A stretch of DNA of 64,000 nt, from NCBI GenBank assembly GCA_018303485.1, contig JAGVYC010000014.1, positions 425 to 64,424 on the forward strand. Reading direction: 5' to 3'. A program made the translations under genes and the position numbers. The notes under the pieces are model-generated. The model saw only the letters and a program-made list of their open reading frames with translations, was not told the origin of the DNA and searched no databases. Source of the DNA: Candidatus Woesearchaeota archaeon (lineage in GTDB: Archaea > Nanobdellota > Nanobdellia > SCGC-AAA011-G17 > JACPNG01). This document shows, piece after piece, positions 1-20,294 of this stretch. Positions within the stretch are counted from its first letter, which is position 1; each line of letters begins with the position of its first letter.

Positions 1-182
1 CAAAAACAAAATAACTGCAACTACAACAAATATGATCAAAGTAAGCAAAAACTCCATCGCCATGCCCCTTTTATTGTAATATCGCATTCAAAGCCCCTTT
101 AATAATGAAATAAACTATCACAAATAAAACTACAGCAAGAACAATATACAGTATAACTTTAAGGAAGGTCTCGCTTCCTCTT

Positions 183-2125: not shown

Positions 2126-4252
2126 TTAGCCTCCAGAAACTAAATTAATCCCGCCAGCAAGCACATTAAATACCAAAATTCCAATCAATGATATTGCAAA
2201 ATACAAAATAGCGCCAAACAATAAATTCTTGCTTAAGCCATTTTTAAAAGCCAGGTCATCAACACCATTTTCAATAGTGCTCCCCAAATAGCTTAATATG
2301 ATAATGATTTGAATGACATAAAACCCAACAACGAGCTGGAAATGATACCCTGGTATTAAATACTCTGGCTTAAATAAATCCAGCAATCCTGCTACACCTC
2401 CTACATCACCTGTTCCAATGCTCCCTGTTTTCAGCTGCTCAGTAAGCTTGTTTATTATTGAAACAACCATTGATGCAACACCAACAACTATCCCTGCAAT
2501 CATCGGGGTCATAAATGTCACCTGGCTTTTCATACTAGACGTTACATCAGCAAGCAAATCTTTAAGCCTTTCATTAACAGCATGTATTCTATTGACATAT
2601 TCGCTTATGCTCATCATGCTCTTTGATATAACAATGGGCCCTCTCCTTGCTGATTCAAGCAAAACCTTCATTGATGTTTCAACCAAACCTGATGGAAAAA
2701 ATAATATTGCTCCTCTATCTTTGTTGAATATAGCCTCTTTCAACCCCATTCCAAACTTTGTTAAATTAACGCTTATTAATCTAAAAAATTCCCCTGTTGG
2801 CGAATCTCTCAAGTCATCAGCAACCTTGGAAAATGCAATCTCAACAGGAATCCCTCCGCCAACTCTATTCCCAAGCTGAAACAAGCTGCCAACGAATTCC
2901 TTTTCCAAATTCTTTGTTTTCTCTCTTATGATAATCAGTTCTTTTGTTTTTAACTTGTAGTAAACTCCTAATGCTATTGCAATCCCAACAGGAATGAACA
3001 AGCTCAATATCAATGCAAAGCTTCCATAAGGCCCTAAACATCTGTTATTATTGCATTTATAATCAAAATATTTCATAGATAATGCACCAGAGCCAAAACT
3101 TGCCTGGTCTAATTCAGGGTTTGTAAAATGCAACACCACTGGCAAAATTCCAATTACAAAAAAAACAAAAAAAACAACAGCAGCTAAGAACTTGGCCCCT
3201 TGCCCATATTTTTCATCAGTTTTTACAATTATATTCTCGCTGTATCCTGTTGGCCTTTTGATCAGCATATTATACCCAAAAATAAAAACAGCTATTGGCA
3301 ATATCAGGTTATACAATATGGCCAAATGCCACCACTTAACAATCCCTTGCAAAAAACTTCCCACTAGTGGAAATAAAACCAATCCTAATATTGGCAAAAC
3401 AATCCCGAGCATATACAATATAGTCATTGGTGATTTTAAATCATGTGCAAAATGCAGCATTCTTTCATGTGTGCCTTCAAGTATTATCTGCAGTGCCTTC
3501 TCGAGCAGATCAATTCTTTTCTCTTCAGAGCCTTCATACAGGCTGCCTTCAATCAAATGAAATGATTCAACAAACTCTAAGTTGTAATCCCTCCATCCTT
3601 CTAAATAATTGTCAATGCTTTCTTTTATAGTTGAAAATTTATCAGTCTCAACATCCCAGAATATCTTCCTTAAATCCAGGGCCAGGGGATTTCCAATGTG
3701 CTCGCCTGCAAATTTTATTGCATGCTCTAAATTGGATGTATGCCTCATGTAAATTATAATATATAATATACAGACAACCATCTGATTGCTTGCAGCCAGC
3801 CTTCTTTTATTCGCCAGATACACCGGAAACTTGCTCAGTGGTTTTATAATAACAGCTCCGAGTATCATTAAAAGCAAAGGAATCATAAGCATAGGGCTTC
3901 CAATAACATAGGATATCACCAAAAGTAATATTGCAAATGCTATTAGAAAAGCCCCAGAAAATAATGCAAAACCAACAGCATCACTGGGCTTAATATGCAA
4001 ATGTGAAATCTCAATGGCGTCATTGATCTTTTTTTCATCTTCTGGCTTTAGTTTTATTGTTAATATGTTTCCAAATAACCTTGCAGCATTTTCATAAAAT
4101 GAATCAGCCCTGTCTAATGCTTCATTCCTAAAGATATCATACTCCCTTGAAAAAACCCTGCTGTCTTTTACATCTGTTGCTTCAAAATCTATGTTCTCTC
4201 CAAGTTTCCTCTCGTATTTATGCAGTATGTCTCTTACGCTTTCATCCACCAT
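2126..4252 (-). CDS. type IV pilus/archaellum assembly platform membrane protein (FlaJ/TadC/PilC, T2SS-F family)
   Basis: 708 aa polytopic membrane protein with two repeated cytoplasmic-domain plus TM-bundle units; lies immediately downstream of and co-oriented with a secretion ATPase, the canonical FlaI-FlaJ pairing. Confidence 0.7.
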   Translation of the reverse strand: MVDESVRDILHKYERKLGENIDFEATDVKDSRVFSREYDIFRNEALDRADSFYENAARLFGNILTIKLKPEDEKKINDAIEISHLHIKPSDAVGFALFSGAFLIAFAILLLVISYVIGSPMLMIPLLLMILGAVIIKPLSKFPVYLANKRRLAASNQMVVCILYIIIYMRHTSNLEHAIKFAGEHIGNPLALDLRKIFWDVETDKFSTIKESIDNYLEGWRDYNLEFVESFHLIEGSLYEGSEEKRIDLLEKALQIILEGTHERMLHFAHDLKSPMTILYMLGIVLPILGLVLFPLVGSFLQGIVKWWHLAILYNLILPIAVFIFGYNMLIKRPTGYSENIIVKTDEKYGQGAKFLAAVVFFVFFVIGILPVVLHFTNPELDQASFGSGALSMKYFDYKCNNNRCLGPYGSFALILSLFIPVGIAIALGVYYKLKTKELIIIREKTKNLEKEFVGSLFQLGNRVGGGIPVEIAFSKVADDLRDSPTGEFFRLISVNLTKFGMGLKEAIFNKDRGAILFFPSGLVETSMKVLLESARRGPIVISKSMMSISEYVNRIHAVNERLKDLLADVTSSMKSQVTFMTPMIAGIVVGVASMVVSIINKLTEQLKTGSIGTGDVGGVAGLLDLFKPEYLIPGYHFQLVVGFYVIQIIIILSYLGSTIENGVDDLAFKNGLSKNLLFGAILYFAISLIGILVFNVLAGGINLVSGG

Positions 4253-4315: not shown

Positions 4316-6598
4316 TTACTTCAGCTTCAATTCTTTAATCGCCCTTTTCAGCCAATCTTCCCACTCAAAAAGTATTCTTTTGACATCTAAATAGCCAACT
4401 TCTTCCCTTACATAATAGCTTATTCTATGAAACTGGTCATTTGCATAAGCAACAAATTCTGCTTCCAAAAGCTGGCTCATGTTTTCTTTGGTAGAATAAT
4501 TAACCAGCATTTCTTTCATTTTTGCCCGCAGCAATATGTTCTCCCACACAGCATCCCAATTGCCAGCCCATTCTTTAACATTTCCAGCAATAGCCTTTAT
4601 TATTTCGCTGTCTCCATTAATCAGATCATCAGTCGGTTCTAGCATGTCTGTTTCAGCATTATACTTCATCAGGTCAACAAACCCCTTTTCAACCAACGGA
4701 TCATTAGTCCAGTGTTTTCTTACCTCTGTTATCTGCACAACCCTTCTCCATTTATGCATGCCGTCTGGGCTTTTCATAGGATTTGCAATTATAATTATGT
4801 CAACAGCCTTGAAGCTTGTTCTGGGAACTTGCAAGTCATTTACTACCCTGTCATAAACACCATAGGGGCTTTCCCCATGTATTGTTCCTATGACAGAATT
4901 AGCCAAAGCGCCAACTCTCATTGCTTCGAATAATGCAAAAGCCTCATTACTTCTCACCTCACCCACTATCAAAGAAGAATCTCCCATTCTCAGGCTTGTC
5001 CTTATTCCTTCATCAGCAGGCACTTCTGTTCCACCTTTTGTCATCGCGCTTCTTACTTTCATTGGCTGAATATTATATCCTAATTTTCTCATCACTTCAG
5101 AATTTATTTCTAATGTGTCCTCAACAGTTATCATCCTGTATTTCCTCATGATTTCTATTAATGAAGCGCCAAGTAAGCTTGTTTTTCCAGAGCTCCTAGT
5201 TCCAGCAAAAAGCAATGTCCTAGATCCAGATATCAAGAAGCTCAGCAAGCCGGCACCCAAAGGGCTTATCATCTTATGCTTTAAGAATAATGGCAAAGTC
5301 CAAGGCTTGTCCCTGTGCCTTCTCAGAGAATATGCAATCCCATAAGGATTCAATGGTCTTTGTATTATTGCTACCCTTGCCCTTGCACCAGGTATTGAAA
5401 GTTCAGTATCTAATATAGGATTTGCCTCATCTAAGGGCCTGCCAGATATTATCCTGAATTTCGTTGCCCAGCCTTCAGCATCATCCCTTGATGGCATTAT
5501 GTTAGTCGTGCATTCTTCATAATCTTCATGCACTAAAAATATCGGCGTATCACCAACAGGAGAATTAATCACAATATCTTGTACCTTTGGGTCTTGCAAT
5601 AATAACTCAATAAGCCCAAAACCAACAGTATATCTCACTAATATTTTTGCTAATTCATCAAGTTCTTCTTGATTTAATTCAAGCCCTTTGTTATCTGCTA
5701 ATTCCTGCAATAAATCTCGACCAATGTTATAAAAAGTTGCCCTCATTTTTTCAGGCTCTAAAAATTCTTCTTCCCTTGGCTTGTGCTCAACTAAGATTGT
5801 CCTTGCCAAATCAAGCAGGGTATATTTGTCCTCGCTTATCTTAAATTCTGGAGGTGTTAAATGATAAAGATATTTTACATCTTTATTAGTCCTGAATATT
5901 GCAACATCAGAGTTTTCAACAGAATAAATATCAATCTCTTCGGCGTCAATTGGCTGCTGCACCATTAATCTTGTAAAAATAAAATCTGGTGAAATGCTTG
6001 GCTTGAATATTCTTTTGTACAAAGACCTGTCGCCAATACTATGCCCCTCAATGTCTGATTTGACAAGGTTTATCAGCCTTGTATTCTCCAATTGATTGCT
6101 GATATAATTCAACCTTTCAATATACTCTTGGTAAACCTCAACCAAATCAAGCGGCACTTTTCCAAGTTTTATCTTTTCTGATCTAATCACTCTTTTCAAT
6201 TCAACGTAAGCGCCAATAGGATCATTCCTTAACAAGTTCAAAACTACATTCTGCAATTCTGCCCTCCAGCTGGGAAGGTAAGTGCTAGAAGCTATTGTCA
6301 TTTCAAAATCCATCAATGTTATCATTTTCTTCTGCCTTATCAAAGACTTGTACAAATTAGCTATCTCAACTAGCATCTGTGTTTGCTCATAATCGTAGCT
6401 GTACTGTTTTCTTTGGGAAAAAATTATTCTGGAAACGCTTGGCGCTTCAATTAATTTTTCTATGGTTGTTGCCATGCATATAGCACTATCCTCTAAAGAA
6501 GGCGAGAAACCCCACATCTCAGCATTGATTTTCATAACATCTTCTTGCCCCTCTTTTATTACAGTATAATCCCTTTCAGCCATGTTACCACTTTTCAA
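4316..6598 (-). CDS. type II/IV secretion-system ATPase (FlaI/PilB/VirB11 family)
   Basis: Walker A 'AGTRSSGKTSLLGA'; 760 aa with long N-terminal extension; paired with FlaJ-like platform gene. Confidence 0.85.
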   Translation of the reverse strand: MKSGNMAERDYTVIKEGQEDVMKINAEMWGFSPSLEDSAICMATTIEKLIEAPSVSRIIFSQRKQYSYDYEQTQMLVEIANLYKSLIRQKKMITLMDFEMTIASSTYLPSWRAELQNVVLNLLRNDPIGAYVELKRVIRSEKIKLGKVPLDLVEVYQEYIERLNYISNQLENTRLINLVKSDIEGHSIGDRSLYKRIFKPSISPDFIFTRLMVQQPIDAEEIDIYSVENSDVAIFRTNKDVKYLYHLTPPEFKISEDKYTLLDLARTILVEHKPREEEFLEPEKMRATFYNIGRDLLQELADNKGLELNQEELDELAKILVRYTVGFGLIELLLQDPKVQDIVINSPVGDTPIFLVHEDYEECTTNIMPSRDDAEGWATKFRIISGRPLDEANPILDTELSIPGARARVAIIQRPLNPYGIAYSLRRHRDKPWTLPLFLKHKMISPLGAGLLSFLISGSRTLLFAGTRSSGKTSLLGASLIEIMRKYRMITVEDTLEINSEVMRKLGYNIQPMKVRSAMTKGGTEVPADEGIRTSLRMGDSSLIVGEVRSNEAFALFEAMRVGALANSVIGTIHGESPYGVYDRVVNDLQVPRTSFKAVDIIIIANPMKSPDGMHKWRRVVQITEVRKHWTNDPLVEKGFVDLMKYNAETDMLEPTDDLINGDSEIIKAIAGNVKEWAGNWDAVWENILLRAKMKEMLVNYSTKENMSQLLEAEFVAYANDQFHRISYYVREEVGYLDVKRILFEWEDWLKRAIKELKLK

Positions 6599-6668: not shown

Positions 6669-7037
6669 ATGGCAATTGAAACAACCCAACAAGATGCTTC
6701 TTACATACTCAATGAAGTTGTTAATAGATTGCGTTCTCTCGAAAGCAAATACAATTTAATAACAGAAAAAACACTTTTGATAAACAAAAACATGATAGAT
6801 GAATATAAATCCTTGTCAAGGCATATAAAAATAATCGAATCTGACATTAAAGAAATTAAATTGGAAGTAAACAAGCTTAAAGAAATAATAAGGGAGTTTG
6901 CAAAAGAGTTCGATAGCTATGCAAGAAAAGAAAACGTCAAGGTTTTAGAAAAGTATATTAACCTAATAGACCCATTAAAATTTGTAACAGAAGATGATGT
7001 TAAGCGCATTGTTAAAGAGGTGATCAAATCTGAATAA
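6669..7037 (+). CDS. coiled-coil protein, unknown function
   Basis: 122 aa, heptad-rich K/E/I/L composition; divergently transcribed from the secretion ATPase. Confidence 0.45.
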   Translation: MAIETTQQDASYILNEVVNRLRSLESKYNLITEKTLLINKNMIDEYKSLSRHIKIIESDIKEIKLEVNKLKEIIREFAKEFDSYARKENVKVLEKYINLIDPLKFVTEDDVKRIVKEVIKSE

Positions 7038-7044
7038 TAACGAA

Positions 7045-7668
7045 TTGCCATTGGATGCAGCAATCAAGCTGAAACAGCAGGGCCTTAATAATCCGCAAAT
7101 AATTTCAAGGCTGGAAGGCCAGGGATACAACAGCCAGCAAGTTGCAGAAACTATAAATCAGCTGGGCATAAAATCAAATATAGAATCAGGTTCAATGGCT
7201 CAGAATGAAATGCAGCCTTCTTTGCTTGATGAAGATATTCCAGTGCCAACACCTCCTCAATCAGGCATGGCATTCGAAAGGCATTCATACTCGCCATCTG
7301 CAAGAATAGAAGAGCAAACTGCGCCTTATATCGCATCTGATAGCTCTGATGTTCAAGGATTAATAGAATCAGTAGTTGAAGAAAAATGGCAGCGCTTCTC
7401 AGATTCAATGACAGATTTTGAAGTCTGGAAAGCAGGCGTTAATGATGATTTAATATCAATAAAGCAGGAGGTAATAAGGCAAAGCAACAGGTTTGATATC
7501 CTGCAAAAAGCAGTTCTTGGCAAAGTGGATGAATACAATAAGAGCATGATTGATGTAAGCTCAGAGATAAAAGCCTTGGAAAAGGTATTCCAAAATATAA
7601 TATCGCCATTAACCTCAAATATTAAAGAGCTTGGAAGAATAACAAACGACCTTAAAGGTGTTAGGTAA
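7045..7668 (+). CDS. hypothetical protein with N-terminal small helical domain and C-terminal coiled coil
   Basis: 207 aa ORF 8 nt downstream of the preceding coiled-coil gene (operon-like); acidic linker then coiled coil. Confidence 0.45.
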   Translation: MPLDAAIKLKQQGLNNPQIISRLEGQGYNSQQVAETINQLGIKSNIESGSMAQNEMQPSLLDEDIPVPTPPQSGMAFERHSYSPSARIEEQTAPYIASDSSDVQGLIESVVEEKWQRFSDSMTDFEVWKAGVNDDLISIKQEVIRQSNRFDILQKAVLGKVDEYNKSMIDVSSEIKALEKVFQNIISPLTSNIKELGRITNDLKGVR

Positions 7669-8202
7669 TCAATAATTCTTCGCAATCAATCTAATGGATT
7701 GTGCAGCAATTACCAGTATTAAGGCTACTGTCAATATCTTGGAATTGAATATTATCTTGGCAATGTCATAAGTTACCCCTTGCTTTTCAATGGGCTGGCC
7801 ATCTGCAGTATATTGCTGTATTAATGGCCCATACACTTGGCTCAGGACAAAACCAAATATAATAATAACAACAATTATCAAAAACCATGCTACCCCTGAT
7901 TCTTCAAATACCTTTGATACAGTGCTTTCCTTAACTCCAACAAATAAAAACAAAGTTACTATGACAATTATCATTAAAAATAATATGACAAGCCATGGTG
8001 TTACAATTATTACAACATTGGAAACACCAGGTGTAAACATGAATATAACCCCTAAAACAAACGAAACAACTAAATTTATTTCTTTAGAAACCCCAAGTAT
8101 CTTTATTTTTGAGAGTACTGCATATATTCCAAAAAACACAACCAAAAAGACAAATATGGGTGCCAGCTTTGCCAATAAACTTACATCAACTGGTGTAGCC
8201 AT
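7669..8202 (-). CDS. 5-TM membrane protein, paralog 1 of tandem triplet
   Basis: 177 aa; shares architecture (short N-terminus, TM1, conserved IL-K-x-KILG motif, further TMs) with the next two ORFs. Confidence 0.55.
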   Translation of the reverse strand: MATPVDVSLLAKLAPIFVFLVVFFGIYAVLSKIKILGVSKEINLVVSFVLGVIFMFTPGVSNVVIIVTPWLVILFLMIIVIVTLFLFVGVKESTVSKVFEESGVAWFLIIVVIIIFGFVLSQVYGPLIQQYTADGQPIEKQGVTYDIAKIIFNSKILTVALILVIAAQSIRLIAKNY

Positions 8203-8203
8203 G

Positions 8204-8767
8204 TTAGGTTTTCTCGCCCTTTAGTTCTTTTCCAATCTTCTCAAAGAAGTTGCCGATGCCGCCCTCTCCTTGTTGCTTTTCTTTGGTTACAAGCCATATT
8301 ATTATTACAAATATGGCAATGAATATTATTATGCTTTTTGTTCTTGTATCCAAATTAGTCAGCCAGTCCGGCAGTATGTATCTCCCATTTAAATAATCAA
8401 CACTCAGGCTCCATATAATTGCTAGAATAGAAACAATTCCTGCAACAGCCATAAGATTGTTCCCCCACCCAGCATATTCTTCTTTTATGAATATGGCTAG
8501 CAGCAATAGCAACATTAAAAATACAACAATGAACAATGAAACATTAGGCAAAAATCTGTTTACCAGTACAACCAAATATTGATTCCTGATAAATATCAAG
8601 CCGACAACTAATGCCACAACGACATTAAAATTCTTGGCATCCTTTCCAAGTATCTTTGATTTTTGAAGTATGGCAAATGCCAGTGTAAATACTAGCAAAA
8701 ATGGCAATGCAATGTCATATACGCCAAAATCAGTAAGGTCTGATATTAAATCGCTTAAGTAACTCAT
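8204..8767 (-). CDS. 5-TM membrane protein, paralog 2 of tandem triplet
   Basis: 187 aa; 'AILQKSKILGKD' motif aligns with 'AILEKTKILGIEKDG' of paralog 3; 1-3 nt gaps between the three genes. Confidence 0.55.
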   Translation of the reverse strand: MSYLSDLISDLTDFGVYDIALPFLLVFTLAFAILQKSKILGKDAKNFNVVVALVVGLIFIRNQYLVVLVNRFLPNVSLFIVVFLMLLLLLAIFIKEEYAGWGNNLMAVAGIVSILAIIWSLSVDYLNGRYILPDWLTNLDTRTKSIIIFIAIFVIIIWLVTKEKQQGEGGIGNFFEKIGKELKGEKT

Positions 8768-8770
8768 GTT

Positions 8771-9313
8771 TTATCCCCCTTGTTTTGTGCCACCAGGAGT
8801 ATTATATACCCAGTATACTACACCAATTATAAATGCAACAAATATCAATGAAATAATAAATGTATCCTGCCATTTATCAACAATATAATCTAAAACAGGA
8901 TCTAGCCAGCCAAATGAATTCAGGAATATTGCTGCTACAGATACAAAAACTATTATCCCCATAAATGCCCCCCAAAACTTCCTTTCTCCAAAATGAAACT
9001 CTTTTTCTCCAGAAGCATACGATCCGACTAGCAGCATATAAATCACAATAACCACCAGTAATAATGCAGCATATGGCAGTGATGATTGTATAAACACTAC
9101 TGCTCTTGGAATAGCAACAAAAAATAAAGCTATGGTTAATGCCACCATTGAATTTATGTTTTTCTTCGGCCTGCCGTCTTTCTCAATTCCAAGTATCTTT
9201 GTCTTTTCAAGAATGGCAAAAACTATGGTAAATATGAATAGAAACGACAGTATTACATCAAAAAAACCCAGCCTCTTTAAAAAATCTATTGCATTGCTCA
9301 ATGGTGTAGCCAT
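8771..9313 (-). CDS. 5-TM membrane protein, paralog 3 of tandem triplet
   Basis: 180 aa; same topology and conserved motif as paralogs 1 and 2. Confidence 0.55.
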   Translation of the reverse strand: MATPLSNAIDFLKRLGFFDVILSFLFIFTIVFAILEKTKILGIEKDGRPKKNINSMVALTIALFFVAIPRAVVFIQSSLPYAALLLVVIVIYMLLVGSYASGEKEFHFGERKFWGAFMGIIVFVSVAAIFLNSFGWLDPVLDYIVDKWQDTFIISLIFVAFIIGVVYWVYNTPGGTKQGG

Positions 9314-9370
9314 GATATATTCATAAAATTTACTTGTTTAAATATTTTGTTGTTTTATTTTTAACCCTAT

Positions 9371-10090
9371 TTACTTGCCAAACTTTCTTTTTCTCAGGGA
9401 ATATTCATTTATGCATGCTAAAAAATCCTCTTTTTTAAACTCAGGCCATAGCAAATCAGGCAAAAAAATTATTTCAGCATAGCTGCTCTGCCATAACAAG
9501 AATCCGCTTAATCTTGATTCACTTGTTCTTATTATCAAATCTGGCTCGCTTTCCAAATAAAGGTTTTTCTTAAATACTTCTTCATTAAGATCTCCCACAT
9601 CCAAGTTTCCTTCCTTTATTTGTTTTGCAATCTTTTTTGTAGCATCTATTATTTCTGCTCTTCCCCCATAAGCCATTGCAAAATTAACAATGTGCTTGTT
9701 ATTCTCTTTGGTTAAATCCATTAGTTTATTCATTACTCCTTGTACATTGGCAGGAAACATCCATAGCCTTCCTATGAAATTAACCCTCAATCCCTTTTTA
9801 TTGATTTCATTTAAATTTTCTCTGCTCATGAGTTCATTAAATTCTTTTTCAAATAAAGCCATTAAATAATCAAATTCGTCTTTAGGCCTGTTAAAATTCT
9901 CAACAGAAAAAGCATAGAATGTTACTTCTTCAATGCATGTTTCATTACACCATTCAAGCAGCTCTTTTACCTTTTTAGCGCCCCATTCATGCCCCATCCA
10001 TGGCTTTATCATCAACCTCTTGGCAAACCGTCTATTGCCATCAAGGATTATGCCTAAATGCCTTGGGATATTTCCATTAACATTATTCAT
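9371..10090 (-). CDS. uppS: undecaprenyl-diphosphate synthase (cis-prenyltransferase)
   Basis: 'HLGIILDGNRRFAKR' and 'RTSESRLSGFLLWQSSYAE' signatures of the UPP synthase family. Confidence 0.85.
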   Translation of the reverse strand: MNNVNGNIPRHLGIILDGNRRFAKRLMIKPWMGHEWGAKKVKELLEWCNETCIEEVTFYAFSVENFNRPKDEFDYLMALFEKEFNELMSRENLNEINKKGLRVNFIGRLWMFPANVQGVMNKLMDLTKENNKHIVNFAMAYGGRAEIIDATKKIAKQIKEGNLDVGDLNEEVFKKNLYLESEPDLIIRTSESRLSGFLLWQSSYAEIIFLPDLLWPEFKKEDFLACINEYSLRKRKFGK

Positions 10091-10207: not shown

Positions 10208-10480
10208 TTACTCTTCAGTCTTATTCTCTTCATAGCTAGGTATTGCAGCCTTGCTTATTATTATAACATCGCCTATTGCTTTTACCATGTGATGTGGCAC
10301 TATGACCCCCTTGGCACCGCCTAAAACCTTGCTTAAGAAAGAATTCCTGGTTGCCTTTACTCTCCATCCAAAAACCTTATTAGAACTTATTATGCCTTCT
10401 TCAACATCACCAAAATAATCACCAAGGTCTGTAAAAACCCTCATGTCATATAAATCAGTTACATTCTTTAGTTTTAGCAT
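10208..10480 (-). CDS. PRC-barrel domain protein
   Basis: 90 aa; beta-rich with 'GDVxD' pattern typical of archaeal PRC-barrel proteins. Confidence 0.5.
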   Translation of the reverse strand: MLKLKNVTDLYDMRVFTDLGDYFGDVEEGIISSNKVFGWRVKATRNSFLSKVLGGAKGVIVPHHMVKAIGDVIIISKAAIPSYEENKTEE

Positions 10481-11213: not shown

Positions 11214-11966
11214 ATGTTTACAAAAAAAGAAATAAATCATTTGGTGATTTCTGTGTTTATACTTGGTTTTGCATTTGGTTTCAATGATAACCAGCCATTT
11301 TTCAGCCTGAAGAACTGGACTATAAACTTCATCCGCGCATTAATCTCAGCTGCAATAATACTCTTAGTATATGAAATTTCGCACAAGGTATCTGCAAAAA
11401 GATATTGTGCTGAAACAGAATATGAAATATGGGCGATAAAGCGTTATGGTTTCTGGCGCTCGGCCAAATTTCCTGTAAAAATATTGAACTTTACAATAAG
11501 TTCCTTTCCGTTGGGCATTGTTCTTTCTGTAATCGCAACATTGCTTTCAAATGGTTTGTTTTACTTAACTCCAATATCCTCATTTAAAATCATTGAAAAA
11601 CCACACTTGAGAATTGGTGCCAAATTTAAAGGACTGACATATTTTGAAGAGGCTAAGATATCATCATTTTCTATAATTATCCTCATTATCCTAGCGTTAA
11701 TGCTAAATACTATCTCGCCAAACATAATTTTCAACCAGCTGACATTAATGATTTTTGTTTTCATAGGTTATAATTTGCTGCCCATTTCAACGCTTGATGG
11801 TTCAAAGATATTTTTTGGCTCTGTTCCATTATACATAAGCATGGTTGTATTCACCCTTCTGTCTTATGTATTGATGGGTATGTTCAATGTCATTGCAGCA
11901 TTAATTCTGGCAGCAGTTTTGTCATTATTCATGCTATTTTTATACTTTGGCTTCAAAAAGAGCTAA
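11214..11966 (+). CDS. polytopic membrane protein, unknown function (starts 2 nt after TraB gene stop)
   Basis: 250 aa, 6+ TM segments; operon-like spacing with TraB-family gene. Confidence 0.5.
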   Translation: MFTKKEINHLVISVFILGFAFGFNDNQPFFSLKNWTINFIRALISAAIILLVYEISHKVSAKRYCAETEYEIWAIKRYGFWRSAKFPVKILNFTISSFPLGIVLSVIATLLSNGLFYLTPISSFKIIEKPHLRIGAKFKGLTYFEEAKISSFSIIILIILALMLNTISPNIIFNQLTLMIFVFIGYNLLPISTLDGSKIFFGSVPLYISMVVFTLLSYVLMGMFNVIAALILAAVLSLFMLFLYFGFKKS

Positions 11967-12222
11967 GAAAGCTGAATATCGCTTTTTGTATAAGCCATAT
12001 ACTTGCAATATAGGTTATAATCCCGAAATAACCATACAATGCCAATATGAATACTATTCCTGAAATTAAGTCAAATACGCTGGCAAGTGACTTAATAAAT
12101 AAAACACTCTTAATTATAAGGTATAATGCAAAAAACAAAGCAAAAAAATCTACTTTAAACCTCAATAAAATCAATGATATAGCTGTCAACAAATCCAATA
12201 ACCCTAATAAATATATTATCAT
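11953..12222 (-). CDS. small membrane protein (89 aa), uncertain
   Basis: ORF with three hydrophobic helices. Confidence 0.3.
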   Translation of the reverse strand: MIIYLLGLLDLLTAISLILLRFKVDFFALFFALYLIIKSVLFIKSLASVFDLISGIVFILALYGYFGIITYIASIWLIQKAIFSFLSSF

Positions 12223-12276: not shown

Positions 12277-13815
12277 ATGGTTTTATTAAAAAATTTTACC
12301 CCAAGATTGTACCAGTCTAACATTTTAAAGGGCTGCATTGATAAGAATTGCCTTGTAATACTCCCTACAGGGATAGGCAAAACAGCTATAGCACTTTTGC
12401 TAGTTATAGAAAGGCTGAACAAATTTAAAAACTCAAAGGCATTATTATGCTCGCCAACAAAGCCGTTATGCCAGCAGCACCAAGAAACTTTCAAGGCTCA
12501 TACAGACATTGATAAATGTTTAATTTCACTTTATACAGGCCTAACTCAAGCAAATAAACGGGCAAAAATATTTTCAGAAAATAAAATTATAATAGCAACG
12601 CCACAAACAATAGAATCAGATTTGTTAAACAATCGCATAAATCTCAATGATTTTTCAGTTTTGATAATAGACGAAGCCCATCGCTCAAGAATGAAATATG
12701 CAAACACAATGGTCGCAAAAAAATACATTGAAACAGCAGAAAATCCAAGAATACTTGCTTTAACAGCCTCACCAGGCAATACAAAGGAAAAAATCAATGA
12801 AATATGCAGTAATCTGTTCATAGAGGAAGTCGAAATAAGGACTGACGAAGATGATGATGTCAAGCCTTACATGCAAAAAAAATCTATTGAATTCATAAAT
12901 ATAGAGCTAGAAAATGAAATCAAGAAAATATGTGATCTATTAAAAATAGTTTACAATGATAAATTAAGTTATTTAAAAAAGATTGGTTTTACAAAACCAA
13001 CAAGTTTAATCAATAAAAAGGACTTATTGTTGCTGCAAAAACAATTTCAAAAAGAATTGTCTAAAAGAAACCCTTCTGCATTCTTTGGTATTTCATTAAC
13101 AGCACAATTATTAAAACTCTCTCATTTGATAGAGCTGACAGAAACCCAAGGCTTGAAGCCATTAAAGAATTTTTTAGATAAATTAAAAACAGAGCAGACT
13201 AAAGCAGCAAAAATAATTACAAATACAAAAGACATTTTAGAGGTATACAAAATAACGCAGACACTCATCGAAAACAAAGTTCTTCATCCAAAGTTAGATA
13301 AGTTAAAAGAAATCATAAAAGAACAGTTTTTATCAAACAATAGCTCAAAAATGATAATATTTGCAAATTATCGCGATACAATTGAAGAATTGCTTGAAAA
13401 CATAAAAGAAATAGAAAACTGCCATCCTGTTAAGCTAATCGGCCATAAAAAAGGCATAACCCAGAAACAGCAGCTAGAAACTATAAAAAATTTCGAATCA
13501 GGCTTGTACAATTGTATTATTACAACATCAATTGGCGAAGAAGGCTTGTCAATAGGTACTCTAGACATAGCAATCTTTTACGACAATGTTCCAAGTGCAA
13601 TACGCAAAATTCAAAGAGAGGGTAGAGTCGCAAGAACAAAGCCAGGAAAGATAATATATCTCGTAGCAAAAAATACAAGAGACTCTGCCTATTACTGGAA
13701 ATCAAAAAGGGATGAAAAAACCATGAAGAAAACCATAGCTAATATAAAAACAAACTTTGAAAAACAGCAGTCATTGGCAAATTTTACAAAAAATGAAAGT
13801 AATAATAGATTATAG
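12277..13815 (+). CDS. hef: Hef-like SF2 helicase (helicase module of Hef/XPF)
   Basis: Walker A 'LPTGIGKTAIA', DEAH box 'IIDEAHRS', helicase motif VI 'QREGRVAR'; 512 aa. Confidence 0.85.
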   Translation: MVLLKNFTPRLYQSNILKGCIDKNCLVILPTGIGKTAIALLLVIERLNKFKNSKALLCSPTKPLCQQHQETFKAHTDIDKCLISLYTGLTQANKRAKIFSENKIIIATPQTIESDLLNNRINLNDFSVLIIDEAHRSRMKYANTMVAKKYIETAENPRILALTASPGNTKEKINEICSNLFIEEVEIRTDEDDDVKPYMQKKSIEFINIELENEIKKICDLLKIVYNDKLSYLKKIGFTKPTSLINKKDLLLLQKQFQKELSKRNPSAFFGISLTAQLLKLSHLIELTETQGLKPLKNFLDKLKTEQTKAAKIITNTKDILEVYKITQTLIENKVLHPKLDKLKEIIKEQFLSNNSSKMIIFANYRDTIEELLENIKEIENCHPVKLIGHKKGITQKQQLETIKNFESGLYNCIITTSIGEEGLSIGTLDIAIFYDNVPSAIRKIQREGRVARTKPGKIIYLVAKNTRDSAYYWKSKRDEKTMKKTIANIKTNFEKQQSLANFTKNESNNRL

Positions 13816-14452
13816 GGAAAGGAAATCTGGGATAATTAGGGAACTTGCAAAGCATGATATTGAAGTGGACGAAAAACAGCTCTTAATTGGAGATTTCATA
13901 ATACAAACAAAAGATAAAGACAACAACACCATTAACCTCTGCATAGAAAAAAAGACCCAGGAAGATTTCCTAAATTCCATAATAGACAGGAGGCTATTAA
14001 AACAATTAATAGACATGAAAGAACATTTTCAAAACCAGCTTTTGATAATAGAAGGTTCAAAAAACCTATACTCTATGAGAAATTTTCACCCGAATGCAAT
14101 CCGTGGCATTCTTGCAACAATATCAGTCGACTTGAAAATACCAATAATAACAACAAGGGCTGTAGCAGATACAGCTGCATTTATAGCCACCATAACAAAA
14201 CGGCTTGAAAAACCTCGCTCAGAAATAAGTATATTAAAAAAAAGAAAGCCATTAACATTAAAAGAACAGCAGGAATTTATAATTGAATCCTTGCCAGGCA
14301 TTGGCCCAACATTATCCAAATCTTTGCTTCAAGAATTTAAATCCATAAAAAACATAATCAATGCCAAAGAAAAAGATTTGAAAAATATTGATAAGATTGG
14401 CAATAAAAAGGCAAAAGGTATCTTAAATTTAATACATCAAAAGTACGAGTAA
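13757..14452 (+). CDS. ERCC4/XPF-type nuclease with tandem HhH (nuclease module of Hef)
   Basis: ERCC4 signature 'CIEKKTQEDFLNSIIDRRL' (ERKxxxD), 'GDFII', C-terminal 'LPGIGPTLSKSLL' HhH2; overlaps the helicase ORF by 59 nt in a different frame. Confidence 0.8.
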   Translation: MKNSSHWQILQKMKVIIDYRERKSGIIRELAKHDIEVDEKQLLIGDFIIQTKDKDNNTINLCIEKKTQEDFLNSIIDRRLLKQLIDMKEHFQNQLLIIEGSKNLYSMRNFHPNAIRGILATISVDLKIPIITTRAVADTAAFIATITKRLEKPRSEISILKKRKPLTLKEQQEFIIESLPGIGPTLSKSLLQEFKSIKNIINAKEKDLKNIDKIGNKKAKGILNLIHQKYE

Positions 14453-16361: not shown

Positions 16362-16625
16362 TTAAATTATTTCTTCTTCAGAAACAACTATGAAATCACC
16401 AATTGCCATTACAGCAGAATATGGTAGTGTTAAGTTGTTTTGTGTGTCTTTCTCTAATTCCAATGATTGTGCATAAGCAGTAGGGTTTTTCAGAATTATT
16501 TGCATTAACTCTCCTGTCCTGGACTCAAATGATATATTGCCTACCTCGCCAAACCTCTTCCCTGATTTTGTGACAACAATCTTGCCCATTAATTGCCTTG
16601 CTGTTCTTTTATCTTCATCTGCCAT
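16362..16625 (-). CDS. PRC-barrel domain protein
   Basis: 87 aa; paralogous in fold or composition to 10208..10480. Confidence 0.5.
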   Translation of the reverse strand: MADEDKRTARQLMGKIVVTKSGKRFGEVGNISFESRTGELMQIILKNPTAYAQSLELEKDTQNNLTLPYSAVMAIGDFIVVSEEEII

Positions 16626-17029: not shown

Positions 17030-17385
17030 AATAGACCTAACCTTCCTATGGAAATATACATATATAATAAAAAATACACCCTCCCACCATTATTTCCTAT
17101 GGAACCTATAATCTATTGCATTTGTATATTCTTGCTTTTTATTTTATATTATAATCCAGAAAAAACAATAACATATCAAAAAACCCCTCCTCTAAGCCTA
17201 TATCTATCATAAAACATGATTCAATATTATATATATATTAAATATGAATTATAAATATATAAATAAAAATAGCCTTGTTATCATTTCATAGGAAACAAGA
17301 GGGTTAATTTCTAAAGGTAGTTAGTAAAGTTTATCAATAAACCACTATTTTAATCTCCATAGGAAACATAGGAGGGAGTATAATA
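17030..17385. other. chromosomal replication origin (oriC): AT-rich DUE flanked by four inverted ORB/mini-ORB elements
   Basis: TTCCTATGGAAA at 17043-17054 and G-string + TTCCTATGGAAC at 17077-17106 in one orientation; CATAGGAAAC+GAGGG at 17287-17303 and CCATAGGAAAC+GGAGGGAG at 17358-17378 inverted; >85% AT stretch 17107-17283 between; directly upstream of orc1/cdc6. Confidence 0.75.
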
Positions 17386-17433: not shown

Positions 17434-18645
17434 ATGGGGCAAAAGGGGTTAACTGGGTTTTTTGAAAATTTCTTAAAGCAAGAGCCTATATTTACTAATA
17501 AAAAAGTACTTCAGTCAACTTATACACCAAAAACAATACTTCATAGAGACGAGCAAATAGACCAATTAGCAAGCATTTTAGCGCCAATATTAAGGTTGGA
17601 AAGGCCATCAAATGTATTTGTATATGGTAGGCCAGGCTCAGGCAAGAGTTTGACAATACAGCATGTTTGCAGCAATATTCTCAGGGTTGCAGAAAAAAAC
17701 AAACTGGAAATAAAAATATTATACTTAAACTGTAAATTAAAGGGTGTTGCAGATACACAATACAGGTTAATAGCCAATCTAGCAAGGGAATTTGGCATAG
17801 AAGTTCCAGTAACAGGCCTACCAACAGATGAAATCTATAAATTATTCATCAAAGCCATTGAAAAAGAAAAAACATTATTAATCATTATCTTAGACGAAAT
17901 AGACCAGCTTGTCAAAAAAATAGGTGATGAGATATTATATAATTTAACAAGGATTAATACAGAATTAAAGAATACTGAAATCTCATTAATAGGCATTTCA
18001 AATGATTTAGTTTTTACAAATAGCATAGATCCAAGAGTAAAAAGCAGTCTTAGCGAAGAGGAGCTTATATTTCCACCATACAATGCATTGCAGCTCCAGG
18101 ATATATTAAGGCAAAGGGCAAAAATAGCATTTAGGAATGAAACCATAGAAGAAGGAGTCATTGAAAAATGTTCAGCATATGCAGCTAGAGAGCACGGTGA
18201 TGCGCGAAGGGCGCTTGAACTTTTAAGAGTCGCAGGAGAGATCTCAGAAAGAAAAGGAAAAACAAACATCAAAATAACAGACATAGACGAAGCAGAAGAA
18301 AAAATAGACAAAGATACAGTAATAGATATTATAAACACCCAGCCAAAACAATTCAAACTAGTTCTTTATTCAATAACAAAGATACATTTTTCCTCCACCA
18401 ATACCCCTATATTTACAGGCGAGATTTATGATATGTACAAAGAAGCATGCTTCAAAGTTGGCTTAAGACCTTTAACACAAAGAAGAGTCAGTGATATCAT
18501 AGCAGAGATGGACATGCTTGGCATTATAACGACCAGAGTAATTAGCAAGGGCCGCTACGGCAGGACAAGAGAAATTTGCCTTGCCATTTCAGATTCAATA
18601 ATTAACAATGTAAGCAATATATTAAAAGAGGGATTGTCATTATGA
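17434..18645 (+). CDS. cdc6: Orc1/Cdc6 replication initiator
   Basis: Walker A 'GRPGSGKS', AAA+ lid, C-terminal winged helix; 403 aa; adjacent to ORB cluster. Confidence 0.9.
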   Translation: MGQKGLTGFFENFLKQEPIFTNKKVLQSTYTPKTILHRDEQIDQLASILAPILRLERPSNVFVYGRPGSGKSLTIQHVCSNILRVAEKNKLEIKILYLNCKLKGVADTQYRLIANLAREFGIEVPVTGLPTDEIYKLFIKAIEKEKTLLIIILDEIDQLVKKIGDEILYNLTRINTELKNTEISLIGISNDLVFTNSIDPRVKSSLSEEELIFPPYNALQLQDILRQRAKIAFRNETIEEGVIEKCSAYAAREHGDARRALELLRVAGEISERKGKTNIKITDIDEAEEKIDKDTVIDIINTQPKQFKLVLYSITKIHFSSTNTPIFTGEIYDMYKEACFKVGLRPLTQRRVSDIIAEMDMLGIITTRVISKGRYGRTREICLAISDSIINNVSNILKEGLSL

Positions 18646-20294
18646 AAGGTGCAGTAAACATATTTCTAGAAAATGATTTTTTGCCCTCCCCTGACATAAT
18701 AAAGGATATTAAAAATATCCCATCAAAAGAGATAATTGAAGCGATACAAAAAAACATAGAATTCCCAGAAAAATTATTAGTAATAAACAAAGACATAATA
18801 GCAATAATTCCAAAATTATCAGAAAAGGCAGACATCAATTGGGCAGAGTTTGAAAAAGCAAAAGTCATGATAGAAAAAGGCAAAATAGATAAAACCTATA
18901 ACATATTCTTAGACCTTTTAACTTATAAAGTTGAAGATAAAAAAAAGAAAGAGCTTGATAAATTGCTGGAGGAAGTAAAAAAGGAAGAAAAACTCGACAT
19001 TAATGAAGAGCCGCCGACAGAAGCGCCATTAAATGTAATTATATTAAAAACATACAAAGATGATCCAAAGAAATTAGAAGTGGCAGATTTTGTAGAATAT
19101 TTTAAGATCCGTTATAATTTAATAAAAGAAGTTCTTCAAAACAGGCAAGAGATACAAGACCCAATATCAATCAACAGAATATTAACAAAAAAAGAAAAAG
19201 AAACAGTCGCTTTTATAGGCATTGTTTACAACAAAAAAACAACAAAAAACAACAACATACTTTTAACAATAGAAGACCCTACAGGATTAATAGACGTTCT
19301 TGTCAATAAAGAAGGAAAAGCAATAGAAAATGCGAGAAACATAGTTAATGATGAAGTAATTGGCATTGCTGGTGTTTATGGTGGCAGAGTAGTCTTTGCA
19401 ACAAACATTATTTTTCCAGACATACCATTAAGCAAGGAATTAAAAAAATGCGATGAAGAAGTATATGCCGCGTTTATTAGCGATTTGCATTTTGGCAGCA
19501 AGCTCTTTTTAAAAGATGATTTCATAAAATTCATAGAATGGATCAATGGAAAAACTGGAAGTTTCCTGCAAAAAAGAGTTTCTTCAAAAGTTAAATATTT
19601 ATTTATAATCGGTGATTCTGTAGATGGCGTTGGCGTTTACCCAAACCAAGACAAAGAGCTTGTTTTAAAAGACATCTCCCAGCAATATGAATTATGTGCA
19701 GAATATTTGGGCATGATAAGAAAAGATATAAAAATAATCCTTGCTCCAGGCCAGCACGATTCAATAAGAGTAGCAGAACCACAACCCCAGTTAGATAAAG
19801 AGTTTGCCAAATCATTATACGCATTGCCTAATGTAATTTTTGTAAGCAACCCCTCTCTTGTTAACATACATTCAAAAAAAGATTTTGAAGGCTTTAACGT
19901 CCTAATCTACCACGGTGCAAGCTATCATCACTATATAGATGAAATTGATTCATTGAGGCAGACAAACACAAGAGATAACCCAACAAATATACTAAAATTT
20001 TTACTGCAAAAAAGGCATTTGGCTCCATCTCATACATCAACAGTTTACATTCCTTCAAGGGATCACGACCCATTTTTTATAGATAAGATACCAGACCTAA
20101 TGTTATCAGGGGAAATGCATCGTTCAGATGTTGCAACATATAATAATATAACAATGATTAACTGCAGTTGTTTCCAAGGAAAAACGCCTTTCCAGGAAAA
20201 AACAGGCAATAACCCGCTACCTTCAAGGGTTCCAATTATGAACCTAAAAACAAGAGAAGTAAAAATACTGAACTTCTCGAGCGAAGAAGAATAA
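18642..20294 (+). CDS. DNA polymerase II (PolD) small subunit DP1
   Basis: Calcineurin/Mre11-like phosphoesterase motifs 'DLHFGS', 'IIGDSVDG', 'APGQHD', 'SGEMHRS'; N-terminal OB region; overlaps cdc6 stop by 4 nt. Confidence 0.85.
   Translation: MKGAVNIFLENDFLPSPDIIKDIKNIPSKEIIEAIQKNIEFPEKLLVINKDIIAIIPKLSEKADINWAEFEKAKVMIEKGKIDKTYNIFLDLLTYKVEDKKKKELDKLLEEVKKEEKLDINEEPPTEAPLNVIILKTYKDDPKKLEVADFVEYFKIRYNLIKEVLQNRQEIQDPISINRILTKKEKETVAFIGIVYNKKTTKNNNILLTIEDPTGLIDVLVNKEGKAIENARNIVNDEVIGIAGVYGGRVVFATNIIFPDIPLSKELKKCDEEVYAAFISDLHFGSKLFLKDDFIKFIEWINGKTGSFLQKRVSSKVKYLFIIGDSVDGVGVYPNQDKELVLKDISQQYELCAEYLGMIRKDIKIILAPGQHDSIRVAEPQPQLDKEFAKSLYALPNVIFVSNPSLVNIHSKKDFEGFNVLIYHGASYHHYIDEIDSLRQTNTRDNPTNILKFLLQKRHLAPSHTSTVYIPSRDHDPFFIDKIPDLMLSGEMHRSDVATYNNITMINCSCFQGKTPFQEKTGNNPLPSRVPIMNLKTREVKILNFSSEEE

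Follow-up and report, generated by a model that had tools for sequence, protein, structure and literature searches.

A window of 64,000 nucleotides from a Candidatus Woesearchaeota archaeon (assembly GCA_018303485.1, contig JAGVYC010000014.1, positions 425 to 64,424 of the forward strand) carries three consecutive genes for small membrane proteins, here named A, B and C, close to the gene of a secretion ATPase. The three proteins constitute an undescribed protein family. Judged from protein anatomy and synteny, the most likely role of the trio is as a new kind of accessory subcomplex in a divergent machine of the type IV filament (TFF) class. The other genes recurring at the locus encode two coiled-coil proteins, ccL and ccS, and the platform protein, Plat.

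The A, B and C proteins

All three genes are on the minus strand. Paralog A (8771..9313, an open reading frame (ORF) of 180 aa) is the most conserved of the trio. Paralog B (8204..8767, 187 aa) has the same architecture and a lysine-rich, predicted cytoplasmic C-terminal tail. Paralog C (7669..8202, 177 aa) diverges most. Its first transmembrane (TM) segment, TM1, is without the G..D element, it carries TPW(F/L) as a conserved motif, and its predicted extracellular loop 4 is longer. A spacer of 3 nt (8768-8770) separates A from B and a single nucleotide (8203) separates B from C. A preliminary description of the window, which listed three consecutive minus-strand ORFs of 177, 187 and 180 aa placed 1-3 nt apart, was exact in both coordinates and gaps. 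No fourth copy was found within the 64-kb window by the hidden Markov model of the family.

A Shine-Dalgarno-like GGGGGA is located inside the 3′ end of A, 7-8 nt ahead of the start codon of B, and translation of A, B and C is probably coupled. Upstream of A on the same strand, an AT-rich intergenic spacer of 57 nt (9314..9370) contains, as read from the sequence, a TATA-like TTTAAA approximately 26 nt before the ATG, which suggests that the three genes are expressed from a promoter of their own as an almost leaderless transcript. A scan for bacterial sigma-70 promoters and terminators was uninformative, the host being an archaeon.

A, B and C are true paralogs with a similarity far above chance. 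They share 25-29% identity and were matched to each other by BLASTP (A-B E = 1e-15, A-C E = 9e-7, B-C E = 8.5e-7). Profile-profile comparison of their sets of orthologues gave E = 5e-43 for A-B (probability 100%), 3e-20 for A-C and 6e-20 for B-C, while the control, two unrelated membrane families of the same loci, had a probability below 5%. The paralogy, for which pairwise and multiple alignment had been suggested earlier, is upheld by both methods.

In a cross-genome matrix of bit scores, A best matched the A of other genomes, and the same applied to B and to C; A-A scores between genomes were 96-147 bits versus 58-66 bits for A-B within the window. The order A-B-C with one gene of each was found in all 88 loci examined, among which incomplete sets occurred solely at contig ends. 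This 1:1:1 orthology and fixed order imply that the triplication is older than the split of the sampled lineages and that the copy number is invariant, and by these comparisons the trio falls into three orthologous groups of ancient divergence. Mean corrected distances were 0.89 for A and 1.26 for both B and C; for comparison, the ATPase had 0.54 and an unrelated membrane protein 1.41. The tandem triplication had been described as a lineage-specific and possibly variable expansion, and variation of paralog number among related genomes had been proposed as its test; the number is instead fixed at three in the order A-B-C, and the ancient groups, with one gene of each, do not support a recent or variable expansion. 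The suggestion of a surface-variation cassette falls with it, since the triplication is ancient and the copy number constant; the proteins are also conserved and their extracellular loops small.

One ORF among the relatives, P0128 (365 aa), is an apparent fusion of A and B in which the initiator Met of B is retained after a linker rich in Ser, Thr, Gln and Asn. It was set aside as probably a stop-codon read-through or an assembly artefact, because two joined five-TM units, each with the N-terminus out and the C-terminus in, would be topologically awkward.

Hydropathy and an AlphaFold2 (AF2) model of A, built from an alignment of 56 sequences (mean predicted local distance difference test (pLDDT) 87, predicted template modelling score (pTM) 0.63), indicate approximately five TM segments per protein and an N-terminal amphipathic helix. 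The helices in the model span residues 4-15 (the amphipathic one), 17-38, 51-67, 69-99, 112-133 and 137-170. The orthologues carry more lysine plus arginine (K+R) in the segments proposed to be inside (loop 1, loop 3 and the C-terminus) than in those proposed to be outside (the N-terminus, loop 2 and loop 4), with 10.8 versus 2.5 for A, 10.4 versus 2.6 for B and 4.9 versus 2.7 for C. This distribution predicts an N-out/C-in topology. All loops of A, B and C have at most 30 aa, and the extramembrane parts are very small.

Conservation peaks in TM1 and then in a cytoplasmic L(E/Q)K(T/S)KIFG motif, and is also seen in residues at the membrane interface; for the family as a whole, the signature consists of TM1 and, after it, L(E/Q)K(T/S)K(I)(F/L)G. 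The conserved TM1 residues of A and B are G16, D19, L22-P23-F24-L25, F28 and F32. In A, G16, D19 and L22-P23-F24-L25 are near-invariant and the cytoplasmic motif is LEKTKI(F/L)G. D19, near the outer end of TM1, is the sole conserved Asp and is not present in C, and conserved polar or charged residues are scarce in the membrane core. After TM1, the motif reads AILEKTKILG in A, AILQKSKILG in B and AVLSKIKILG in C. The five-TM topology that had been reported as shared thus stands, and the reported motif AIL(E/Q)K(T/S)KILG fits A and B but not C.

The N-terminus of A in the present genome, KRLG followed by a hydrophobic stretch, had been noted as loosely similar to a class III signal, and weak matches to Pfam T4SS_pilin were obtained for 3 of 56 family members (best E = 0.0028). 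Both would fit atypical pilins or pseudopilins. However, KRLG is unique to this A. The N-terminal ~16 residues of the orthologues are neutral or acidic (mean K+R 0.3-0.9, mean D+E 1.4-2.5), and while G16 is conserved in A and B, position −2 is F, I or L in the orthologues. Without a basic N-terminus and with a hydrophobic residue at −2 in the orthologues, the resemblance is ascribed to chance. The charge distribution also predicts an extracellular N-terminus, which is the opposite of prepilins, and four more TM helices follow the first. A class III signal or pilin assignment was rejected on the lack of K/R at −2 in orthologues, the missing basic leader, the five TM helices and the N-out topology. 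The same topology and helix number agree with the earlier remark that these are not simple pilins. Pilins of any atypical kind, or a surface cassette in the face of three fixed copies with 1:1:1 orthology and short extracellular loops, are regarded as very improbable.

The preliminary description did not recognise the family, and no significant match for A, B or C was found in Pfam-A 2025 (56 family members searched), NCBIfam 20, PHROGs 4 or PADLOC 2, nor in a PDB sequence profile search with the trio (best E 0.79). The Foldseek check that it had proposed for an AlphaFold model gave the same result, as no fold match was obtained for the model of A in PDB and BFVD. Below threshold, the 56 members gave Pfam noise to Acyl_transf_3 (17/56), Gpr1_Fun34_YaaH (6/56) and TMEM127, in addition to T4SS_pilin.

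The first two of these families are weakly suggestive of transport or acyltransferase functions, and a heteromeric channel or transporter, for example one importing ions, lipids or small solutes needed by a host-dependent DPANN cell and mechanistically separate from the filament machine, was considered. It would suit proteins that are polytopic and embedded almost entirely in the membrane, and some heteromeric transporters are likewise made of three paralogs. The Pfam matches are, however, below gathering thresholds and typical of hydrophobic composition, the conserved polar residues are limited to D19, which C does not have, and Foldseek gave no transporter match in PDB. Nor does the conserved neighbourhood include a gene for an energising ABC ATPase or a substrate-binding protein. 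Such a transporter is considered unlikely.

Three further assignments were rejected. A T2SSF/GspF/TadC/FlaJ platform (PF00482) was discarded for A, B and C on the lack of a Pfam match and loops of at most 30 aa, and derivation from Plat on hhalign probabilities of at most 3% against the Plat profile. The Asp in TM1 raised the possibility of a prepilin peptidase (Peptidase A24, FlaK/PibD), but there is no second Asp and no GxGD, A, B and C had no Pfam match to Peptidase A24, and the model of A had no Foldseek match in PDB.

In NCBI, the A protein has a 100% identical counterpart, the hypothetical protein J4409_01625, in a metagenome-assembled genome (MAG) of Candidatus Woesearchaeota. A word index gave 136 homologues of A, all annotated as 'hypothetical' and mostly of 172-196 aa, and their named sources were MAGs of Woese- and Nano-archaeota. 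An exhaustive profile search of 1.84 billion representatives gave, at E<=1e-3, 2460 clusters of 50% identity; among the best 150, the majority had the length of the trio proteins. Scanning one genome per GTDB species, relatives of the trio were found in at least 577 species genomes. Nearly all of the 80 loci listed were labelled Woese-, Pace- or Nanoarchaeota or unclassified 'archaeon'; a few binned assemblies among them are titled 'uncultured Methanosarcinales', which are unverified labels.

The conserved neighbourhood and the proposed role

The gene neighbourhood was determined by clustering of ORFs over 85 loci and in three more distant loci, and denominators refer to the loci with room for the gene in question. 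In the orientation of the locus, which is the reverse of that in the window, A, B and C are forward, ccL and ccS opposite, and the ATPase and Plat genes forward again, with typical sizes of ~210 aa for ccL, ~135 aa for ccS, ~760 aa for the ATPase and ~730 aa for Plat. The ccL gene was directly after C in 62 of 64 loci and in all three distant ones (65/67). The ATPase gene was within 10 kb of the trio in 53 of 59 loci (54/62 when the distant loci are included), and Plat was near the trio in 36 of 52. The three distant loci contained ABC and ccL, ABC with ccL and ccS, and the full set, respectively. The tightest partners of the trio are the coiled-coil genes, which were not mentioned in the preliminary description. 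The invariant core is thus ABC and ccL, usually adjoined by ccS, the ATPase and Plat.

The ccL gene (7045..7668, plus strand, 207 aa) is convergent with C and abuts it. Its cytoplasmic product starts with a small, conserved helical domain, continues through a linker of low complexity and ends in a conserved coiled coil; its only matches were generic coiled coils and a weak UBA_3, the latter for the N-terminal domain. Homologues of ccL are confined to Woese-/Nanoarchaeia, and one of them was named 'archaellum component FlaC' by the Joint Genome Institute (JGI). The ccS gene (6669..7037, plus strand, 122 aa), identified in 52-61 loci, encodes a cytoplasmic coiled coil and is located ahead of ccL; it is divergent from the ATPase gene, a pairing found in most loci. 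Neither ccL nor ccS had a significant Pfam match to FlaC_arch or Arch_fla_DE. Since neither has a TM segment, a membrane partner would be needed if they act at the membrane.

The secretion ATPase (4316..6598, minus strand, 760 aa) belongs to the FlaI/TadA/CpaF (T2SSE) family (Pfam T2SSE E = 5.5e-14) and has an N-terminal extension of ~300 aa. In NCBIfam it scored 121 bits with the TadA-family model and 117 bits with FlaI (cut-off 550) and was under every equivalog cut-off, and its best PDB sequence matches were the archaeal GspE 2oap, CpaF and FlaI. An orthologous ATPase of a related locus (L001:12833-16657, 1274 aa) carries an intein with Intein_splicing and LAGLIDADG domains, which the copy in the window does not have; ATPase ORFs of similar excess length were seen in L016, L018, L026, L029, L036, L051, L071, L072 and L082.

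The neighbouring Plat (2126..4252, minus strand, 708 aa) is a polytopic membrane protein with no match in Pfam, NCBIfam or PDB sequences and with no internal repeat detectable at the sequence level; one of 11 orthologues gave a weak T2SSF match (E = 0.055). Its AF2 model (pLDDT 79.6, pTM 0.75) was aligned by Foldseek to the cytoplasmic domains of EpsF (2vmb, 3c1q and 2vma) and OutF (5nbg) with probabilities of 0.95-0.99, target TM-scores of 0.66-0.72 and a root-mean-square deviation of ~3.2 Å over ~120 columns. There are more than 3352 homologues of Plat, and two were called TadB by JGI; the 120 listed are all at least 50% identical. The GspF-type fold of the model and the TadB names identify Plat, at the level of predicted structure, as a divergent platform of the FlaJ/TadC/GspF type. 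The platform that had been assumed beside the trio is in this way substantiated by the fold of a cytoplasmic domain.

At the edge of the window, a pilin-like gene (1..87, minus strand) starts at position 87 with a class III signal-type N-terminus (MRYYNKRG followed by MAMEFLLTLIIFVVVAVILF) and leaves the window. The complete protein of 277 aa (MRYYNKRG followed by MAMEFLLTLIIF...) continues in L086:19227-20060, and an ORF of 44 aa with a similar N-terminus is next on the contig. Class III-like genes are also located downstream of Plat in L008, L027, L035, L037, L039, L052, L055, L060 and L071, and the pilin-like genes after the platform diverge fast (at least nine related loci). A crude class III regular expression detected no complete pilin gene inside the window. 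FlaH, FlaF/FlaG and archaellins were not found by Pfam in the genes called on the window contig and in L001-L005, and the locus is therefore taken to be a type IV filament system of the pilus type and not an archaellum.

One gene of each kind in a fixed order, near-overlap, conservation of TM1 and the motif, and little extramembrane mass together point to a membrane complex that is obligately heteromeric. A, B and C would be subunits of one such integral-membrane complex, which may form a membrane-embedded ring or cluster that surrounds the FlaJ/TadC-like platform or lies next to it. Their conserved cytoplasmic motifs could dock ccL and ccS, and these in turn would scaffold or regulate the hexameric ATPase of the FlaI/TadA type. 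A, B and C are proposed as the link between the coiled-coil pair and the motor because ccL is their tightest partner and has no anchor, and because ccS is divergent with the pilus ATPase. The role would be equivalent to that of PilM/N/O and GspL/M in bacteria and of ArlX or ArlCDE in the archaellum, although the proteins are unrelated. Based on anatomy and synteny, this scheme of a heteromeric integral-membrane subcomplex that together with ccL and ccS scaffolds a lineage-specific filament machine is held tentatively, at somewhat short of an even chance. A variant in which the trio, ccL and ccS form a heteromeric ring that is a stator- or cage-like accessory of the motor of a hitherto undescribed kind, with a new TFF function such as host contact-dependent exchange, is improbable; if true, it would explain the reported lack of type IV pilus components in DPANN.

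The linkage of the trio to a secretion ATPase and platform, originally noted in the window, recurs elsewhere. The co-localisation expected for an accessory of a TFF machine was observed for both the ATPase (54/62) and Plat (36/52), and the family is in most loci linked to pilus genes. Several points weigh against the scaffolding role. Gene order upstream of the trio is likewise conserved in many loci, with a PRC-barrel gene, TraB, a 253-aa membrane protein (TM253) and Hef, and as this extended synteny includes the housekeeping genes TraB and Hef, the linkage between trio and ATPase is partly inherited gene order. Six loci (L056, L064, L067, L074, L087 and L088) have ABC and ccL and no TFF ATPase within 10 kb, and L002/L003 have ABC alone. 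The trio, ccL with ccS, and the ATPase with Plat each make up a transcription unit of their own. In a mirror-tree and partial Mantel analysis of 22 loci, partial r was 0.34-0.40 between members of the module versus 0.22-0.35 for held-out controls, and rate covariation thus did not set the members apart from the controls. Finally, we know of no TFF system with comparable polytopic accessory subunits.

The six loci and the separate transcription units equally suit a different reading, in which ABC, ccL and ccS make up an autonomous membrane-anchored coiled-coil module that may help, e.g., to organise the envelope, to shape division sites or cell contacts or to remodel membranes, with the pilus genes adjacent through inherited order or loose co-regulation. 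The adjacency of ABC to ccL (65/67) is indeed tighter than that to the ATPase (54/62). In 53 related loci, a PRC-barrel gene of the CdpB type directly precedes A on its strand, and in another clade SepF is two genes upstream of A (L002, L004 and L089 by Pfam, and L074, where the protein clusters with the SepF of L002). The CdpB1/2-type family of PRC-barrel proteins has been linked to archaeal division (10.1101/2023.03.28.534520). In the window, the corresponding protein (10208..10480, minus strand, 90 aa, Pfam PRC E = 7.6e-5) is separated from A by UppS (9371-10090).

The loci with broken synteny argue against such independence. Of 15 loci without the upstream block (TraB/TM253/PRC), ccL was kept in 13 and the ATPase in 10, so that the linkage to the ATPase survives the break, whereas PRC, TraB and TM253 go as a block; membership of the PRC-barrel gene in the module is doubtful since it is lost jointly with TraB and TM253. 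In L013 and L020 the genes are rearranged and yet still together. The divergent pairing of ccS with the ATPase in most loci also ties the coiled-coil genes to the filament machine, PRC-barrel genes are in the survey of that family mostly stand-alone or beside housekeeping genes, and Pfam and NCBIfam scans revealed no division-protein homology for any of the five proteins. An autonomous module is accordingly a possible but rather doubtful explanation, and an accessory subcomplex of the filament machine is still preferred.

Other features of the window

A second PRC-barrel gene is located at 16362-16625 (minus strand, Pfam E = 1.3e-5). Hef is split in the window into two overlapping ORFs, a helicase (12277-13815, 512 aa) and an ERCC4 nuclease (13757-14452, 231 aa; otherwise called as 219 aa), and is one fused protein of 730 aa in the related locus L001. 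Three polytopic membrane proteins, at 391-1044 (217 aa), 11214-11966 (250 aa) and 11953-12222 (89 aa), had no match in the family libraries with which they were compared. The latter two are neighbours in the TraB-side block in 50 and 33 loci, respectively, and were by hhalign unrelated to A, B and C.

An inverted repeat whose core is TTCCTATGGAAA / TCCATAGGAAAC occurs four times, twice with the extension GGAGGGAG, in the intergenic stretch 17030-17380, directly upstream of cdc6/orc1 (17434-18645). These repeats look like the origin recognition boxes of an archaeal replication origin. The gene after cdc6/orc1 (18642-20294, 550 aa) has a DNA_pol_E_B domain and likely encodes the small subunit of PolD.

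Comparison with known systems

Nanoarchaeota of the Woesearchaeales type belong to the most diverse and abundant groups of DPANN; to our knowledge no member is well characterised. Their locus now presents a widely conserved ATPase of the TFF type, a platform recognised by fold only, nearby pilin-like genes and five undescribed, putative accessory proteins. We know of no counterpart of a fixed trio of polytopic paralogs in the described pilus, archaellum or secretion systems. If the trio acts in the machine, it represents a new architecture within the type IV filament superfamily, and if it is independent, it would still be a near-core, lineage-defining membrane complex of reduced genomes.

A groundwater study described type IV pilus components as 'missing in DPANN genomes' (10.1101/2020.05.14.094862), and for Woesearchaeota the present locus contradicts this. 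That Plat is recognisable by predicted fold only may explain such reports. Makarova et al. 2016 (PMC4858521) described nanoarchaeal ATPases without identifiable pilins and no trio of the A/B/C kind. The accessible portion of a 2026 TFF census preprint (10.64898/2026.04.22.720090), which employs arCOG-derived models, does not mention such components, and the trio is not described in the accessible portions of the dark-matter surveys PMC6393860, PMC9258230 and PMC5898192. Across the portions available of the literature on TFF censuses, dark-matter surveys and PRC-barrel proteins or division, no description of the trio was found.

One parallel is in Thermoproteales, where a secretion ATPase is accompanied by a 4-5-TM protein (arCOG05557/arCOG13890) that was proposed to replace TadC (PMC4858521). 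The comparison is by description only; the trio resembles these proteins in being small, polytopic, without an assigned function, dissimilar to other families and encoded beside a TFF ATPase. The Thermoproteales have a single small protein, whereas here there is a large platform as well, a fixed trio and coiled-coil partners.

The bindosome system of Sulfolobus (BasABC and BasEF) likewise combines three small membrane-associated proteins with a FlaI-like ATPase and a FlaJ-like protein, and the ATPase of the window scored 60 bits with the NCBIfam BasE model. BasA, BasB and BasC are pilin-like proteins that carry class III signals and have one N-terminal helix, unlike A, B and C, whose N-termini do not conform to class III and which have five TM segments. 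In the archaellum, ArlX (FlaX) and ArlC/D/E are coiled-coil proteins, cytoplasmic or close to the membrane, whose genes adjoin those of a FlaI-type ATPase and the FlaJ platform and which are considered to surround the motor as a ring or scaffold; ccL and ccS are similarly placed. ArlX, however, has its own TM anchor; ccL and ccS have none and are accompanied instead by a separate polytopic trio, in a locus without FlaH, FlaF/G or archaellin.

By analogy, the trio may also be likened to FliP, FliQ and FliR of the export gate in flagellar and injectisome type III secretion, polytopic relatives from one operon that assemble into one heteromeric membrane complex of an ATPase-driven appendage machine. 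The machine family is different and there is no sequence match, and Foldseek of the model of A against PDB, which holds FliPQR structures, gave no match.

PilM/N/O of type IVa pili and GspL/M of type II secretion are inner-membrane accessory subcomplexes for alignment and assembly, encoded beside an ATPase and a platform, and PilN/PilO and GspL/GspM are paralogous pairs. In these systems, the membrane partner uses a short, conserved peptide on its cytoplasmic side to bind a cytoplasmic protein that touches the ATPase. No sequence or fold similarity between them and the trio was detected with Pfam, PDB or Foldseek, and PilN/O and GspL/M are bitopic with large periplasmic ferredoxin-like domains, whereas A, B and C are three paralogs with five TM segments each. 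The likeness would be one of analogy: like PilM/N/O and GspL/M, A, B and C appear as accessory membrane paralogs whose genes are neighbours of those for the ATPase and the platform.

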